Below, in pieces: positions 1 through 4,866 of a DNA stretch of 4,905 nt (within the stretch, counting starts at the first letter, position 1; every line of letters starts with the position of its first letter). Under the pieces are notes generated by a model that was given only the letters and a program-made list of their open reading frames with translations, did no database searches and was not told the DNA's origin. Source of the DNA: a virus (taxonomy: Duplodnaviria; Heunggongvirae; Uroviricota; Caudoviricetes); the IMG/VR virus record IMGVR_UViG_2724679172_000008, one strand, 5' to 3'. Made by a program: the position numbers and the translations under genes.

Positions 1-1031
1 CCCTTTGTCGTCAGGTATTCGCAGATATATTTGTTCAGTGCTATGGGATCTTTGTGAATGTCGATCGGACGCTCACGGACAAGGCCAAAAATAGTTTGGC
101 GGTCGTAGCGAAGGGCATCAGGCTGTTTGCGCATTGATGCCGAGATACGCTTCCAGTCTTCGCGGTCGTTATCGATAACTTCATTTTTTGCCCAGCGATG
201 GATGCTGCCGTCAATGTTTCCGGCATCCACATCACCAGGCCAGAGAGCGTAGGCCAGTTCGTCATCCAGTGTTTTCCATGTCTGCTTGTATTCGCGATGA
301 ATGGCAGCAATGACCGGGCTGATTTTTCCTGTTGAATTTTCAACTGTTGAATTTTCACTGTGCTGTTGATTGGTTCTGGCGCGGGCGAGATCAATAACAG
401 ACGTGTATTTTCCGGTTTCCTTGCGTTCACCTTCGCGACGTTTTTTCCAGATGCGCATCTCTGCCTGAATTTCGGGCCATTTGGCACCAGGCTTACATTT
501 ATGCTTAACCCACCCGATGGCATGCAGCTTAAGCTCCGGATACATGGCGTTAACTTCTGGCATTTTCATCAACGCTTCAACGATATGTCCGTCGAATGTT
601 GCCATGTCTTCCTGCAACAATTCCTGTGCGCTAATAACCATATCAACGGTGATGTTTTCACATGTGTCGAACTTAACCATGACAGCGTTCTGTACTTCAG
701 GGGCCAGCTTGTCAAAAGTGACGTTCATCGGATCTGATTCAGTCTCAACCGGGACAAAAGAAGCAGACTCCTCATCCCAGCGGTTTTCCTGCATATATTC
801 AGCATCCCAGGAATCGAGGGCAGGGCGGGGTATGCCGGGTTTATCCTCACAGACAATAAATTTATAAGCGCAGTCCTGAGCTGCAGGGAATTGCTCCAGA
901 AATTGCCAATGAAATTTTGCGCGTGCGCGACGCTCATCACCAGCTTCAATGGCAGTGGCCACCGCAACAGCGCTATCTTCTTTTATGGCCTGTTCATCAG
1001 GAATAGCAGCGCAAATAAAGACCTTACTCAT
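1..1031 (-). CDS. Large early-left prophage protein, 5' part only (343 codons in window, continues past the left edge); possibly YdfE-like by position downstream of dicB and the ydfD-like gene
   Basis: ATG at 1029-1031 on the minus strand with GAGG 9 nt upstream; an in-frame stop just upstream (1038-1040) fixes the start. I checked every triplet of this frame down to position 3 and found no stop. N-terminus reads MSKVFICAAIPDEQAIKEDSAVAVATAIEAG. It is absent from the supplied ORF track only because it has no stop inside the window; track ORFs 41-523, 360-737, 481-867 and 725-967 lie in other frames over it. The product name rests on synteny alone. Confidence 0.6.
   Translation of the reverse strand, partial: MSKVFICAAIPDEQAIKEDSAVAVATAIEAGDERRARAKFHWQFLEQFPAAQDCAYKFIVCEDKPGIPRPALDSWDAEYMQENRWDEESASFVPVETESDPMNVTFDKLAPEVQNAVMVKFDTCENITVDMVISAQELLQEDMATFDGHIVEALMKMPEVNAMYPELKLHAIGWVKHKCKPGAKWPEIQAEMRIWKKRREGERKETGKYTSVIDLARARTNQQHSENSTVENSTGKISPVIAAIHREYKQTWKTLDDELAYALWPGDVDAGNIDGSIHRWAKNEVIDNDREDWKRISASMRKQPDALRYDRQTIFGLVRERPIDIHKDPIALNKYICEYLTTK
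329..358. repeat. Two tandem copies of a 15-bp unit (CTGTTGAATTTTCAA / CTGTTGAATTTTCAC) inside the large left-edge gene; each contains the near-palindrome TTGAA-TT-TTCAA
   Basis: Direct reading: TTGAATTTTCAA at 332-343 and TTGAATTTTCAC at 347-358, period 15 bp; encodes the peptide repeat ENSTV-ENSTG in the minus-strand protein. Confidence 0.5.
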
Positions 1032-1126: not shown

Positions 1127-1315
1127 TTATCCAGCCGGTGTTTCGTTATTCAGGTACAGCGATACTTTTTTTAGCGGGAGGCATTCACCAGAAATTTTTT
1201 GCTCGTCTCTTGCCTGGAGGCAGGATTCTTTACTTGCATAAATTCCGGTAATCACATTCTGTGATTCACCCGTTATAAGAAAAACCGTCATCATCAGTGC
1301 AAATGCTGAAGTCAT
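1127..1315 (-). CDS. Small protein (62 aa) with N-terminal hydrophobic helix; YdfD-like (Qin prophage small membrane/lysis protein) by size, position after dicB and N-terminal character
   Basis: Track ORF MTSAFALMMTVFLITGESQNVITGIYASKESCLQARDEQKISGECLPLKKVSLYLNNETPAG. Its ATG (1313-1315) overlaps the TGA of the upstream gene (1312-1314), the classic ATGA translational-coupling arrangement. AT-rich relative to flanks. The YdfD identification is from memory of the Qin dicB operon order, not a search. Confidence 0.55.
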   Translation of the reverse strand: MTSAFALMMTVFLITGESQNVITGIYASKESCLQARDEQKISGECLPLKKVSLYLNNETPAG

Positions 1316-1500
1316 TGACGTTCTCCGAAAATACCAAGTTCAAGAAGAGCAATTCGGGAAAGTATGGAATTATCATTGAGCAGATAAGGCTCATATTTCC
1401 TCATATTAATGGCATCTTCAGTAAACTCCCGGTTACTGAGCAGAACACCAATATCAAAACAACCTTCAGACGTATTAACGTTTGGTAATAACGTTTCCAT
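1312..1500 (-). CDS. dicB: DicB-family cell division inhibitor (62 aa)
   Basis: Translation METLLPNVNTSEGCFDIGVLLSNREFTEDAINMRKYEPYLLNDNSILSRIALLELGIFGERQ. The N-terminal half matches my recollection of E. coli K-12 DicB (M-TLLPNVNTSEGCF-IGV--SN--FTEDAIN); length is also 62 aa. GAGGA sits 7 nt upstream of the ATG (1498-1500). It lies immediately downstream of a DicF-like sRNA and an RNase III-type hairpin, as in the Qin dicB operon. Confidence 0.75.
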   Translation of the reverse strand: METLLPNVNTSEGCFDIGVLLSNREFTEDAINMRKYEPYLLNDNSILSRIALLELGIFGERQ

Positions 1501-1517
1501 TATCGCGTCCTCAACAA

Positions 1518-1674
1518 TGAATTTTGTGATGCAGTGCCTGGTGCCTCCAGGTGACGTTAACCAGTTAACAATTAACGCCGGGTTAGTTGATGCTCGTTAC
1601 GCCCGTAAAATACCGCCTTACTGCTTTAACTGTTCCGCGTGCGCATAGCCGCATTCACCGCATCACAAAATTCA
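1518..1674 (-). promoter_or_regulatory. Long hairpin between DicF and dicB: 19-bp inverted arms (1518-1536 and 1656-1674, 18/19 complementary) enclosing 119 bp; candidate RNase III processing site that releases DicF and sits 5 nt upstream of the dicB Shine-Dalgarno
   Basis: Arm 1 ATGAATTTTGTGATGCAGTG pairs with arm 2 CACCGCATCACAAAATTCA; I checked this base by base. The enclosed segment has further local dyads (CCTGG-TGCCT-CCAGG at 1537-1551, a twin GTTAAC). RNase III processing of the dicF-dicB transcript is established for Qin. Confidence 0.5.
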
Positions 1675-1678
1675 CTTT

Positions 1679-1736
1679 AAAAAGGGCGGCAGAGCAGTCA
1701 CGGAGTAAAACTGATACCGCCAAATGTCACCAGAAA
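1679..1736 (-). ncRNA. dicF: DicF-like sRNA (53-nt core, plus coordinates 1684-1736) with 3' GC stem (GGCGG/CCGCC) and U5 tract (1679-1683) acting as intrinsic terminator
   Basis: Minus-strand sequence TTTCTGGTGACATTTGGCGGTATCAGTTTTACTCCGTGACTGCTCTGCCGCCC followed by TTTTT. This matches my recollection of K-12 DicF at all but one position (A for G at position 12), which I cannot verify without a database. Context is right: dicB follows, with an RNase III-type hairpin between them. Confidence 0.7.
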
Positions 1737-1800: not shown

Positions 1801-2071
1801 TGCATTTTCTGGAGCAATGGAGGAAACCCCAGCCATACTTACCGCCGCGCCATTTCGCGGAGTGCCACAACCGGAAGCGCACGGTCGAACTAAATTTAAC
1901 GACACCGTACAGAGAGACCAATTTCGCCGTGCGCTTTCGCGTTATGCCCTGACTTTTCAGGGACATATCCTTTCAGTAAGCTGTCAGTGCCGGATGCTCA
2001 CCCGTGTCCGGCGCACGCACTCCACCTGACCCGTGGAGAACTCCTTAATTACCAACCCTCAGGAGGGTGAA

Positions 2072-2350
2072 ATGGATAAAAAGCAAATTGAGGCCCTGCA
2101 ATCTATTATTGAAGAACAAGATGAAGCTATCAGGATTCTTTCATATCGCACTGATATGATACTAAATATGCTTTCTGCATTAACGGCTGCGCTTGGTGGT
2201 ACAAAAACAAACGTATACCGCGAAGTTGTTATTCAACAGATAGATAAATTTGAAAAAACCATACCAGGTATTAATGCTCATCTTGCAGAACAAGAGAAAG
2301 ACTATGCTCTTATGGCAATTTCTTCAGTAGCTCTCCCGAAAGTTGAGTAG
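2072..2350 (+). CDS. Hypothetical protein, 92 aa; AT-rich accessory (moron-like) gene on the opposite strand inside the leftward operon
   Basis: ATG at 2072 preceded by a near-consensus Shine-Dalgarno (AGGAGG at 2061-2066, 5-nt spacer). Translation MDKKQIEALQSIIEEQDEAIRILSYRTDMILNMLSALTAALGGTKTNVYREVVIQQIDKFEKTIPGINAHLAEQEKDYALMAISSVALPKVE. Composition is visibly more AT-rich than the GC-rich region 1800-2030 just upstream. The track ORF begins at GTG 2033, but ATG 2072 has the RBS. I recognise no family. Confidence 0.5.
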   Translation: MDKKQIEALQSIIEEQDEAIRILSYRTDMILNMLSALTAALGGTKTNVYREVVIQQIDKFEKTIPGINAHLAEQEKDYALMAISSVALPKVE

Positions 2351-2723
2351 TTTTAATTGTTGTTTTGAAATAATCACTGCTTTCACATTTGAGTGATTTC
2401 ATGGCAATCCAAATGCGGGCCTCTGTGCCTGCATTTGGTTCCAGTTGCTGTAGACGTTTTGCGTCTTCCAAAAGTAAGGCGATAATGTGTTTCAGCTTCT
2501 CATCATTTGCTTGATTCTTGTTTTCAGGCGAATTCTGTCCGCCGAATAGGCGCTTCTCTTCATACAGACCTATAAAGGCACGACGCACGTTACCGGATAT
2601 AGTATCGATGGTTTCCTTTTCTACGGTACTCAGGTCAAGAGTCGCCAGTTGAGAGCGAACCACATTCGATGCCATTTCCTGGAATGGTACTGGTAAATCT
2701 TTAAATTCCATCGTCAACCTCAT
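2310..2723 (-). CDS. Hypothetical protein, 137 aa (or 133 aa from the alternative ATG at 2709-2711 with GAGG 6 nt upstream); second gene of the leftward operon
   Basis: Track ORF; its ATG (2721-2723) overlaps the TGA of the upstream small gene (2723-2725), an ATGA coupling. Acidic, helical-looking sequence with no motif I recognise. Its last 41 bp overlap the 3' end of the convergent plus-strand gene 2072-2350. Confidence 0.5.
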   Translation of the reverse strand: MRLTMEFKDLPVPFQEMASNVVRSQLATLDLSTVEKETIDTISGNVRRAFIGLYEEKRLFGGQNSPENKNQANDEKLKHIIALLLEDAKRLQQLEPNAGTEARIWIAMKSLKCESSDYFKTTIKTTQLSGELLKKLP

Positions 2724-2956
2724 CAGTCAGTGTTTCTGGTTAACCAGCGACGCGCGCCAGCTTCAGTTTTAAACGTTTTGCTTCTGGTATACGTCATCGC
2801 GGTGAACGTACCGTCCTGGTTGGGGAACACGCCACATACCAGAGATTCGCTGTTGCCAAGATCGATAGTATCCATGCTGACCTCATTTCCCCTTAACGCC
2901 GGGGTAGCGGAACAAAAACCTGCTGCATAGTTATTAAAGTTGAACCCTGCCGTCAT
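2723..2956 (-). CDS. Small hypothetical protein, first gene after the PL-like promoter: 77 aa from ATG 2954-2956 or 50 aa from ATG 2873-2875 (MDTIDLGNSESLVCGVFPNQDGTFTAMTYTRSKTFKTEAGARRWLTRNTD)
   Basis: Both candidate starts have an upstream GAGG (9 nt and 5 nt spacers). The shorter form has the size of the small genes found next to Rac/Qin-type repressors. No family assignment is possible from sequence alone. Confidence 0.45.
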   Translation of the reverse strand: MTAGFNFNNYAAGFCSATPALRGNEVSMDTIDLGNSESLVCGVFPNQDGTFTAMTYTRSKTFKTEAGARRWLTRNTD

Positions 2957-3060: not shown

Positions 3061-3101
3061 ATACCCATAGGTATTTAAAAAGTAAATACCCATGGGTAAA
3101 T
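3061..3101. promoter_or_regulatory. OL-like operator pair (ATACCCATAGGTAT at 3061-3074; ATACCCATGGGTAA at 3086-3099, core TACCCATGGGTA a perfect 12-bp palindrome) overlapping a candidate leftward promoter (minus strand -35 TTTACC, 17-bp spacer, -10 TAAATA)
   Basis: Direct reading. Both sites share the half-site ATACC/GGTAT with the sites between the repressor and cro-like genes; centre-to-centre spacing is 25 bp. They lie just downstream of the repressor stop and upstream of the leftward operon, the position of lambda OL/PL. Confidence 0.5.
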
Positions 3102-3560: not shown

Positions 3561-3636
3561 AGGTAAATAATAGATGCGATTACCGCAAGGTAAACAACCT
3601 GTGGGTATTGACTTTTGTTTACCTGTGGGTATTCTT
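3553..3636. promoter_or_regulatory. OR-like control region with three operator copies and back-to-back promoters. Operators: 3553-3566 (weak, overlaps the repressor ATG), 3595-3608 and 3619-3632 (both ATACCCACAGGT on the minus strand, 24 bp apart). Rightward promoter: -35 TTGACT 3608-3613, -10 TATTCT 3630-3635. Leftward repressor promoter: -35 TTTACC (plus 3589-3594), 16-bp spacer, -10 TATTAT (plus 3567-3572)
   Basis: Direct reading of hexamers and repeats. Operators overlap the -35 and -10 of the rightward promoter. The repressor -10 ends 6 nt before its ATG, so the predicted transcription start is at or next to the A of ATG. Confidence 0.55.
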
Positions 3637-3661
3637 TTGCTGTGTTTACTAAGGAGTAGCT

Positions 3662-3943
3662 ATGGAAGAATTAAGAATATTTCTCAATTCTCTTTCGTCA
3701 GATGAACAGCGTATGTTTGCATGCGAGTGTGGTACCAGCATCGGTTATCTAAGAAAGGCATTGAGTAAAGGTCAAGTGTTAGGGGCATCGTTATGTGTCC
3801 TTATTGAGCGAGCCAGTAATGGTGAAGTTACACGTCAGCAACTAAGGCCTTTTGATTGGATGAATATTTGGCCCGAGCTGGAAGATACCAAAACGTTAAC
3901 ACAACCACTTTCTAGGAGCTTGATTCATGAAAATCAAGCATGA
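3662..3943 (+). CDS. YdaS-like Cro/CI-type HTH regulator (93 aa)
   Basis: AGGAG 5 nt upstream of ATG 3662. The segment IERASNGEVTRQQLRPFDW fits the IE-x-TNG-x-VT-x-E-LRPD pattern I associate with YdaS/Cro-like proteins. First gene of the rightward operon divergent from the repressor; its last 17 bp overlap the next gene. Confidence 0.6.
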   Translation: MEELRIFLNSLSSDEQRMFACECGTSIGYLRKALSKGQVLGASLCVLIERASNGEVTRQQLRPFDWMNIWPELEDTKTLTQPLSRSLIHENQA

Positions 3944-4352
3944 ACACATCCGCATGGCGATGAATGCCTGGGCGCGTCCTGATGGCGAAAAAGTTCCAGC
4001 AGCTGGAATAACCCAGGCTTATTTTGAGTTGGGTATGACGTTCCCAGAACTGTATGACGACAGCCATCCGGAAGCCCTGGCTCGCAATACCCAGAAAATT
4101 TTCCGCTGGGTAGAGAAAGACACCCCTGATGCTGTTGAAAAAATGCAGGCTCTGTTACCGGCGATCGAAAAGGCGATGCCGCCTTTGCTGGTGGCCCGTA
4201 TGCGCAGCCACAGTTCTGAATATTACCGTGAGATCGTCGAACGGAGGGATCGGCTGGTGAAGGATGTCGATGATTTTGTTGCGTCAGCGGTTGTTTTGTA
4301 TGACCAGATGAATCGCGGCGGCCCGGCAGGGAATGCTGTGGTGATGCACTAA
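3927..4352 (+). CDS. YdaT-family protein (141 aa), CII-like regulator / conditionally toxic protein of Rac-type prophages
   Basis: Begins MKIKHEHI and ends VVMH, matching my recollection of the termini of E. coli Rac YdaT (MKIKHEHI ... VIVH) and of similar length; AGGAG 8 nt upstream of ATG 3927; follows the YdaS-like gene as in Rac. Confidence 0.65.
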   Translation: MKIKHEHIRMAMNAWARPDGEKVPAAGITQAYFELGMTFPELYDDSHPEALARNTQKIFRWVEKDTPDAVEKMQALLPAIEKAMPPLLVARMRSHSSEYYREIVERRDRLVKDVDDFVASAVVLYDQMNRGGPAGNAVVMH

Positions 4353-4374
4353 AAGCACGGTGTTCGGGGGTTTT

Positions 4375-4866
4375 ATGAGCAGCAAGCTTCATGGTCTTGT
4401 CTGGGAAGGGTGCGCCTTCACCGGCATGATCTTATCCAGGGTGGCGGTTATGGCCCGTCTTGCAGACTACAGCAATGACGAGGGCGTGTCATGGCCTGCC
4501 ATTGAAACTATCCGGCGTCAGATCGGTGCAAGAAGTGAATCCACAGTGAAATCGGCTATTGCAGAACTGGCGAAAGAGGGCTGGCTGACGAAGGAAGAGC
4601 GTAAGGTCGGTGGGCGTAATGTAAGCAATATCTATCGGCTTAATGTGGAAAAACTCGAAGCAGCTGCGGCGGCGGCGCGTGAGTCATATAAACCGAAAAG
4701 AAAAATTAGCCCGGCAAAAAATGACCCGTTAACAGTTGACCCGTCAAATATTGACCCCTCAACGGTTGACCCGTCAAATTTTGATGGATCAACTGTTGAT
4801 AAAAAACTGCCGATTAGGGGGGCGATGATTGACCCCGATCCGTCAGTATTAAAACCTGATCCGTGA
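4375..4866 (+). CDS. Phage replication initiation protein, winged-helix HTH_36 type (O-like); 163 aa from ATG 4375 (track start GTG 4360 gives 168 aa)
   Basis: The segment ARLADYSNDEGVSWPAIETIRRQIGARSESTVKSAIAELAKEGWLTKEE has the LAD-x-NDEG-x-WPS-x-TIA-x-G-x-S-x-TV-x-A-x-L pattern of HTH_36 replication proteins. The C-terminus is a DPxxV pentapeptide repeat region encoded by iteron-like DNA repeats. It follows the cII-like gene, the position of lambda O. Confidence 0.6.
   Translation: MSSKLHGLVWEGCAFTGMILSRVAVMARLADYSNDEGVSWPAIETIRRQIGARSESTVKSAIAELAKEGWLTKEERKVGGRNVSNIYRLNVEKLEAAAAAARESYKPKRKISPAKNDPLTVDPSNIDPSTVDPSNFDGSTVDKKLPIRGAMIDPDPSVLKPDP
4721..4810 (+). repeat. Six phased 15-bp repeats (iterons) inside the 3' end of the replication gene; four good copies carry the dyad TTGAC-CC-GTCAA, a fifth the variant TTGAT-GG-ATCAA, the sixth is degenerate; a further partial copy lies at 4829-4843
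   Basis: Copies start at 4721, 4736, 4751, 4766, 4781 and 4796 (ATGACCCGTTAACAG, TTGACCCGTCAAATA, TTGACCCCTCAACGG, TTGACCCGTCAAATT, TTGATGGATCAACTG, TTGATAAAAAACTGC). Embedding origin iterons in the initiator gene is established for lambda O. Confidence 0.55.

Follow-up and report, generated by a model that had tools for sequence, protein, structure and literature searches.

We analyzed a stretch of viral DNA of 4,905 nucleotides (nt) (IMG/VR record IMGVR_UViG_2724679172_000008), which we call the window. It comprises the immunity and early-left region of a lambdoid prophage integrated beside ompW, and the same region is present, identical, in Escherichia coli WP7-S17-ESBL-01. Our subject is an open reading frame (ORF) of 92 codons on the plus strand, with its ATG at 2072 and its stop codon at 2348-2350. 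It is the sole plus-strand gene from the repressor gene to the exonuclease gene, and it precedes DicF, a small RNA (sRNA), and DicB, which form the downstream module of the leftward operon (Table 1). An earlier note on this DNA had placed the ORF on the opposite strand inside that operon, between unknown genes and DicF, and this placement was borne out, with DicF identified by Rfam. We favor, with somewhat more confidence than doubt, the reading that the ORF is the exchangeable cargo of a conserved expression slot in the early-lytic (leftward, pL) operon of enterobacterial prophages, and we include in this reading the proposed control of its expression and its proposed role in the lysogen.

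The 92-codon ORF and its exchange at a fixed junction

We found, by comparison with homologues, that the ORF is a genuine gene under purifying selection. A near-consensus Shine-Dalgarno (SD) sequence, AGGAGG, lies at 2061-2066, 5 nt before the ATG. The mechanical list of ORFs gives an extended start at a GTG at 2033; the Prokaryotic Genome Annotation Pipeline (PGAP), which lists an identical product as a hypothetical protein (WP_016239000.1), and all homologues use the ATG. The ratio of nonsynonymous to synonymous substitution rates (dN/dS) was 0.25 relative to a 70%-identical Salmonella homologue and 0.24 when the region overlapping the neighboring gene was left out. Homologues of 39-48% identity are 90-98 amino acids (aa) long and keep the start context, the SD sequence and SD spacing are conserved among homologues, and the length of the ORF is kept down to 40% identity across four genomic backgrounds. 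The product also gave a full-length match to the profile phrog_18692 (E 7.5e-62, residues 1-92 of 92), which carries the label 'unknown function'.

These comparisons bear on the possibility that the ORF is spurious and arose by chance opposite a long untranslated part of a dicBF-type transcript. Ninety-two codons is not an extreme length, and the interval between ydfC and dicF is treated as a long untranslated region in the literature (PMC5069750; it is untranslated also in PMC10448788); the papers on dicBF make no mention of antisense transcription or of an opposite-strand gene in this interval. However, AT-rich DNA does not favor long chance ORFs, and the low dN/dS, the maintained length, the conserved SD sequence and spacing, and the recognition of the ORF by both PGAP and PHROGs all argue for a gene. 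We regard the spurious-ORF explanation as effectively refuted by these comparative data and give it next to no weight.

The composition and the arrangement of the ORF are as the earlier note had described them. In a scan with 200-nt segments, the GC fraction is 0.335-0.35 over the ORF compared to 0.46-0.53 on either side (0.37 for the ORF itself). Its end overlaps the 3' end of the convergent 137-aa gene by 41 bp (2310-2350), and leftward read-through transcription would run antisense to it. In 4 of 47 loci (L013, L105, L114 and L118; L numbers designate the loci compared), a +1 T insertion in a short run of T (~2136-2141) cuts the ORF to 27 aa. The convergent partner is intact in all four, consistent with an accessory rather than an essential gene.

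Comparison of related prophages showed that different ORFs are exchanged at a fixed junction. A PPompW prophage from an Stx2 phage record is ~95% identical to the window from DicF through AGGAGGGTGAA and then diverges completely; similarity resumes in the minus-strand gene, and there over its first ~50 codons only. Between these points it has a different plus-strand ORF, of 77 aa, that also overlaps the 3' end of its neighbor. Four plus-strand ORFs (92, 77, 73 and 63 aa), mutually unrelated, occur at the exact junction in at least 120 loci found by a scan of IMG/VR, and all of them open at the same ATG position in sister prophages. Their 3' overlaps are 41, 23, 11 and 23 bp, respectively, each with its own partner C-terminal sequence. 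The block exchanged in DicF-type prophages therefore takes in the 3' part of the convergent neighbor, and the overlap belongs to the cassette. In the Qin prophage of E. coli K-12 and in phage 606R7, the flank is kept to ...CCTTAATTAC and is followed directly by ydfC, with no SD sequence and no opposite-strand ORF. Of 5426 complete E. coli genomes, 125 carry the 92-aa cargo and ~3050 the flank.

The earlier note had called the ORF an independently acquired accessory (moron) gene and had asked whether it comes and goes at this junction in related prophages. The part of this proposal that concerns the coding sequence stands: the gene is exchanged, is replaced by three other unrelated ORFs or by none (K-12 Qin) at the identical junction in sister prophages, and has a deviant GC content. 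The part that concerns independence needs revision; the promoter, leader and SD sequence belong to the shared slot and not to the gene, and the overlap is part of the cassette.

A structured leader and a putative promoter upstream of the cargos

We found that ~130 nt upstream of the ORF are homologous across phage backgrounds and that this conservation exceeds that of the protein. Within this region, RNAalifold and explicit counting of pairs indicated a leader of ~85 nt with three hairpins. As judged from the aligned loci, a conserved, covarying three-hairpin leader with a stem between an anti-SD sequence and the SD sequence precedes every cargo. The sequence of hairpin 1 hardly varies, and its stem is specific to the plus strand owing to three conserved G.U pairs (-15.9 kcal/mol compared to -11.0 kcal/mol for the minus strand). 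Hairpin 2 has compensatory changes in four of its six pairs (UA/CG/AU and CG/AU/GC/UA). Hairpin 3, CUCC(U/A):(A/U)GGAG, is present in all leaders; four of its pairs are invariant, and the closing pair covaries and is never broken, with A-U in 25 distinct leaders and U-A in 7. The G.U pairs and the anti-SD stem are meaningful on the plus strand alone.

The three-hairpin structure was supported in two alignments. With 28 unique leaders, 91% of cells were paired, compared to 34-49% when the pairing partners were slid, and the covariation score was 0.161 compared to 0.081 in shuffles (reached in 0 of 500). With 37 distinct leaders, realigned with the covariance model and hence leaning to the model's own structure, 92.8% of cells were paired, compared to 32-48% in slid controls. 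Eight pairs changed on both sides in this alignment (0 of 500 shuffles), and covariation was 0.164 compared to 0.069 (0 of 500). Rfam had no match over positions 1950-2075 at E<=1, leaders of six further loci likewise matched no family at E<=0.01, and a literature search did not find the hairpin-1 sequence in any paper.

The upstream regions also share a -10-like element at a fixed distance from hairpin 1. When 24 non-redundant upstream regions were aligned on hairpin 1, 12 of them had a TAnnnT hexamer whose end is exactly 7 nt upstream of the CCGG core; most of these hexamers follow TGn, as in an extended -10. In 9 phage backgrounds that are independent of one another, the hexamer has this same position, 87-94 nt upstream of the ATG. 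The predicted start of transcription is at ~1987-1990, at the base of hairpin 1. A scan of the window for consensus -35 and -10 elements and a weight-matrix scan gave nothing above the level of shuffled sequence, so the case for the promoter rests on comparative positioning. K-12 Qin, which has no ORF at the junction, keeps the leader (58 bits) and a -10 element, TAAACT (NC_000913.3, ~1,649,049-1,649,141, minus strand; 2050-2142 of L131).

A further hairpin, strong and conserved, follows the cargo, 50-100 nt beyond its stop codon and within the coding sequence of the 137-aa gene (...PNAGTEARIW...). The region from 2345 to 2470 folds with z = -4.8, and none of 200 shuffles folded as well. Salmonella has the hairpin as well, with an A-to-G change to a G.U pair, so that the plus strand alone retains the pairing. 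The cargo mRNA may have its 3' end at this hairpin or be processed there.

Separately, we considered pairing of DicF with the cargo start region and rejected it. The energy was -23.3 kcal/mol compared to a shuffle mean of -21.3 kcal/mol, and 29% of shuffles matched it.

Table 1. Features of the window, and sRNA loci next to the slot in four other loci
Feature	Position	Strand	Remarks
Predicted promoter	1954-1982	+	-35-like TTTTCA 1954-1959, 17-nt spacer, -10 TAAGCT 1977-1982
Leader (covariance model R1 match)	1978-2074	+	cmsearch 104 bits, E 1.6e-25; reaches the start codon
Hairpin 1	1988-1997 with 2004-2013	+	UGCCGGAUGC / loop UCACCC / GUGUCCGGCG; 10-bp stem
Hairpin 2	2020-2025 with 2033-2038	+	CUCCAC / loop CUGACCC / GUGGAG
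Hairpin 3	2041-2045 with 2061-2065	+	anti-SD CUCCU pairs with AGGAG of the SD
92-aa ORF (cargo)	2072-2350	+	
Hairpin past the cargo stop	2401-2451	+	core CCAAAUGC 2409-2416 / GCAUUUGG 2431-2438; no U-tract
Convergent partner, 137 aa	2310-2723	-	
DUF1391 gene	2723-2956	-	Pfam
Repressor, 139 aa	3141-3560	-	
O-like replication, YdaT-like and Cro/YdaS-like genes	3662-4866	+	
DicF sRNA	1684-1735	-	Rfam RF00039, 77 bits
DicB	1312-1500	-	Pfam 6e-37
DUF1482 gene	left of DicB		followed by the exonuclease start
Exonuclease	3-1031	-	
sRNA locus next to the slot, L134	4026-4317		
sRNA locus next to the slot, L136	3874-4143		
sRNA locus next to the slot, L264	9910-10092		
sRNA locus next to the slot, L123	4734-4782		

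Cargos, prophage backgrounds and the convergent partner

A search of IMG/VR with a variant of hairpin 1 from outside the DicF-type prophages gave 39 further loci. In the pooled 147 loci, an SD sequence and an ATG lie 54-62 nt after hairpin 1 and open 15 unrelated ORF families of 30-112 aa. Most of these cargos have a low GC fraction (0.29-0.45, compared to ~0.5 for the leader), all are of unknown function, and the sister cargos gave no match to a curated family. Some loci, e.g., K-12 Qin and phage 606R7, have the leader without a following ORF. L285 has two leader-cargo units in tandem (1789-1886 and 2461-2557, both on the minus strand), and L264, L289 and L292 have two leaders each, which suggests that the units can stack like cassettes. 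At a coverage of at least 80%, the DicF-type leader is found in 3049 of 5426 complete E. coli genomes (~56%), in 4260 places that are generally unannotated, with up to 5 per genome. We found no copy of the leader in the Rac prophage. A pattern used on the genome collection, GCCGGN{5,6}ACCNGTGTCCGGC, was too loose and gave chance matches only, in high-GC genomes (L140-L259).

The 62-aa cargo of L278 (MAVTTCPKCSSTSFELK...) is a zinc-ribbon protein with a match to Lar (restriction alleviation) of 20.3 bits, below the cutoff of 28.6. This match is the sole functional hint among the cargos.

Homologues of the 92-aa ORF occur in three prophage backgrounds: the DicF-type lambdoid prophages, Rac-like prophages with RecE, RecT and YdaE, and prophages of the int-C-Cox type. 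The slot, judged by its sequence, appears to occur in all three. In each background the homologue alone runs against the early-lytic operon, at a distance of one or two genes from the early promoter, and the antisense placement holds in every context with called genes. (We took the strandedness of the flanks from called or annotated genes, as a heuristic based on ORF coverage was spoiled on the GC-rich left flank by shadow ORFs.) The order in Rac is racR, ydaG, ydaF (DUF1391), sieB on the plus strand, KilS and kilR, with sieB overlapping ydaF by 4 bp. The matching order in the window is repressor, DUF1391, the 137-aa gene, the ORF on the plus strand, DicF and DicB. In Salmonella prophages, the slot is directly followed either by IsrK and C4, an antisense RNA present together with its a1/b1 target, or by a DicF-like RNA, which scored 36 bits, under the Rfam gathering score of 48. 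An sRNA beside the slot is a recurrent feature. By gene order in the loci compared, the slot always runs opposite to the early operon, with a regulatory sRNA (DicF or IsrK/C4) and toxic early genes immediately beyond it.

Another explanation is that the slot acts mainly in cis. Its convergent transcript would block or destabilize leaky pL read-through into DicF and DicB, IsrK, C4 and ant, or kilR in the lysogen, and the peptides would be secondary passengers. The slot is always just upstream of a regulatory sRNA and toxic genes, the cargos are mutually unrelated, the leader is better conserved than any of them, and K-12 Qin and phage 606R7, which have no SD sequence or ORF, retain both the leader and the -10 element. 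However, the protein sequence of the cargo is under purifying selection, the shared SD sequence and ATG are followed by an open frame in at least 15 unrelated sequences, and the conserved stem between the anti-SD and SD sequences would have no purpose without translation. An action mainly in cis is possible but improbable in our estimation, and such an action could coexist with a function of the protein rather than replace it.

The convergent partner of the window is 133 aa long from the start chosen by PGAP (MEFKDLP...) and is a modular protein. Its N-terminal ~50-63 aa are common to all DicF-type cassettes, and its C-terminal ~70 aa are specific to the cassette; the MEFKDLP... N-terminus is joined to at least four unrelated C-terminal parts. 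The C-terminal part found in the window (residues ~67-137) is also a stand-alone 71-aa gene in Salmonella, with 55-62% identity. The partner matches phrog_1363, which is labeled unknown function, and a profile search of the PDB with it was empty. The AlphaFold model of the partner had a predicted local distance difference test score (pLDDT) of 56, and less than 50 in the C-terminal domain, and was not used.

The pairing of ORFs and partners could mean that they form a cognate two-gene module, in which the 92-aa protein and the cassette-specific C-terminal domain act on each other. Examples would be an exclusion or toxic protein of the lysogen neutralized by an immunity domain made from pL, or a toxin-antitoxin pair. 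The neutralization of SieB by Esc is a model for this kind of self-immunity. In ~110 DicF-type loci, each of the four ORF families has its own partner C-terminus, always with a 3' overlap, and the pair recurs in a Salmonella Rac-like prophage (L123) with the same 41-bp overlap and the stand-alone partner of 71 aa. However, such covariation is expected from the physical linkage of overlapping DNA without internal homology, and the partner in cassette D is the cassette B partner with a 65-aa extension. Co-occurrence is not obligate; in L127-L130 and L134-L138 the homologue is found with a different partner or without one. Homologues of 40-48% identity overlap unrelated helix-turn-helix (HTH) proteins, a 109-aa protein or nothing, and the 41-bp overlap itself is found with unrelated HTH partners in Cox-type prophages. 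The frameshifted ORFs with intact partners further indicate that the ORF is not an essential antitoxin. The covariation of ORF and partner thus appears to be mainly physical linkage, and we consider a cognate pair to be a minor and unlikely rival.

Other features of the window were noted in passing. To the left of the repressor gene (3062-3098) are the inverted repeats TACCCATGGGTA / TACCTATGGGTA, and the interval from the repressor to the cro-like genes (3598-3640) contains ACCTGTGGGTA repeats. These resemble the OL and OR operator sets; the first was called terminator-like in the consensus scan. In the spacer that separates DicF from dicB (1468-1686, minus strand) is an Rfam match of 31 bits to STnc100, a Salmonella sRNA, below the gathering score of 47.

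The 92-aa protein, its possible role and known systems

The earlier note had recognized no family for the 92-aa protein, and our profile searches agreed. Searches of Pfam, NCBIfam and PADLOC returned noise only (RelB-like at 15 bits, cutoff 50), Pfam including SieB had nothing at E<=0.1, the search of PDB sequences had nothing below E 0.6, and PADLOC-DB v2 had no family at E<=1 for this ORF or for the ORF of cassette B; the one assignment, phrog_18692, has no function. Two exhaustive searches of 5.8 billion proteins, one of them with the family profile, found a family of 31 clusters, all hypothetical and all from Escherichia, Salmonella, Klebsiella or Enterobacter, i.e., Enterobacteriaceae. 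A tblastn search found one copy in a plasmid record, 98.9% identical (CP088590.1, 175 kb, positions 91514-91789). That record is a non-mobilizable 'plasmid' of an E. coli from blood, and it may be a phage-plasmid or an assembly artifact.

The protein is predicted to be soluble and all-helical. The AlphaFold model (pLDDT 69) is a generic three-helix bundle with helices at residues 3-41, 46-63 and 69-86. The highest mean Kyte-Doolittle value over 19 residues is 0.93, well under the usual ~1.6 for a membrane segment, and the protein is hydrophilic. The stretch MILNMLSALTAALGG, which had been suggested to be a membrane helix, is placed by the model at the end of the long helix 3-41, and together with the hydropathy this does not support the suggestion. 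The same data bear on the possibility that the protein is an inner-membrane exclusion protein like SieB. The ORF has the position, the orientation and the overlap with a neighbor's 3' end that sieB has in Rac. However, BLASTP gave no alignment to Rac SieB even at E<=100, Pfam gave no SieB match, the hydropathy maximum is low, the model is a soluble helical bundle, and the lengths are 92 and 162 aa. We consider a SieB-like membrane protein very unlikely.

With the ORF regarded as cargo of the slot, we propose the following model. The slot promoter (~1954-1982) would act in the lysogen, where pL is repressed, and make a rightward mRNA that begins at the base of hairpin 1. The 5'-terminal hairpin would stabilize this mRNA, and the anti-SD stem would hold translation of the cargo low or make it conditional. 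Upon induction, convergent transcription from pL would run antisense through the whole cargo mRNA and shut it off. The product, as modeled, would be a small soluble helical protein, probably a coiled coil, that most likely binds another protein. Its most likely role, by analogy, would be in the lysogenic state, in sieB-type exclusion or abortive infection of other phages or in other modulation of the host. Expression of sieB takes place in lysogens, and exclusion or abortive infection is suggested by the location of the slot where Rac has sieB. This location fits the guess of the earlier note, which had named superinfection exclusion or anti-phage functions for prophage genes at such positions; a role in exclusion or defense is an inference.

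Several results weigh against this model or parts of it. The fold of the whole leader differs little between strands (-32.6 kcal/mol for plus and -31.1 kcal/mol for minus). The swap between A-U and U-A in hairpin 3 largely splits two clades and may reflect few independent events. In the ensemble calculated for the window leader, the probabilities that the SD positions are unpaired are 1.0, 0.82, 0.82, 0.30, 0.18 and 0.0, which is partial sequestration. The promoter of the window lacks the TG extension and scores 7.8 bits compared to a median best score of 9.6 in shuffles, and a consensus scan found no intrinsic terminator on the plus strand after the ORF. A tblastn search of 50,697 phage isolates found zero copies of the ORF. 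The AlphaFold model has generic fold matches only, and neither these nor the PADLOC searches link the protein to exclusion or defense.

A broader proposal, which we put forward tentatively, is that the leader-cargo unit is an unrecognized and widespread cassette system of temperate phages of enterobacteria. The fixed promoter and the three-hairpin riboregulatory leader would translationally poise a hypervariable set of small effectors (for exclusion, abortive infection, anti-defense or modulation of the host) in the lysogen, and convergent transcription would gate early read-through into DicF and DicB, IsrK and C4, or kil. RNA structure and antisense transcription would then tie the expression of the 92-aa protein, as a new small effector, to the lysis-lysogeny state.

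Over half of complete E. coli genomes carry the leader, generally unannotated, inside the well-studied dicBF prophage locus. If it is a real expression platform, it marks a catalogue of small, fast-evolving prophage proteins of at least 15 families, which could be screened for exclusion, defense, anti-defense and control of the host. It would also be a new structured regulatory RNA of phages, an SD-sequestering leader with a 5'-terminal hairpin, and convergent transcription of the slot could influence expression of DicF and DicB. DicF and DicB affect cell division, metabolism, phage receptors and virulence of enterohemorrhagic E. coli (EHEC). The 92-aa protein is now a defined, testable candidate rather than an anonymous hypothetical ORF.

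The slot resembles several known systems and differs from each. SieB is known from Rac (b1353 of E. coli K-12), lambda and P22. Like sieB in Rac, the ORF is the one gene of opposite orientation in the leftward early operon, with a DUF1391 gene on one side and an sRNA and a cell-division inhibitor on the other, and it convergently overlaps the 3' end of its neighbor (4 bp in Rac, 41 bp here). In contrast to SieB, the 92-aa protein has no membrane segments and no similarity in sequence, is about half as long, and is preceded by the conserved leader that Rac lacks.

The concept of morons comes from the comparison of HK97 and HK022, and classical morons bring their own promoter and terminator. Like the morons of lambdoid phages, the ORF is variably present among similar prophages, deviates in base composition, is oppositely oriented and may be an independent transcription unit. 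It differs in that promoter, leader and SD sequence are fixed in the phage and only the coding part is swapped, that no terminator was found, and that the exchanged block includes the end of the neighboring gene.

Temperate phages and their satellites, e.g., P2 and P4, carry variable hotspots of accessory and defense genes. The slot shares with these a fixed site with conserved flanks and many unrelated, mostly low-GC genes of unknown function. In contrast to these hotspots, each cargo is a single tiny ORF (30-112 aa), and none of the ORFs tested matches a PADLOC model. To our knowledge, a shared 5' leader that sequesters the SD sequence and an antisense placement in an early operon have not been described for hotspots of the P2/P4 type.

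The mRNAs of type I toxins, e.g., hok and tisB, have structured 5' untranslated regions in which an anti-SD sequence pairs with the SD sequence. The leader resembles these, and the pL transcript is a potential long antisense RNA. The product differs, being a hydrophilic protein of 92 aa and not a short hydrophobic peptide, and no dedicated antitoxin sRNA was identified, pairing of DicF with the cargo start being at chance level. The architecture of a leader with variable cargos is apparently undescribed, as far as our searches show. The 92-aa protein belongs to a tiny family and is uncharacterized; viewed as a moron that occupies the sieB position, it would extend a known class by one member.

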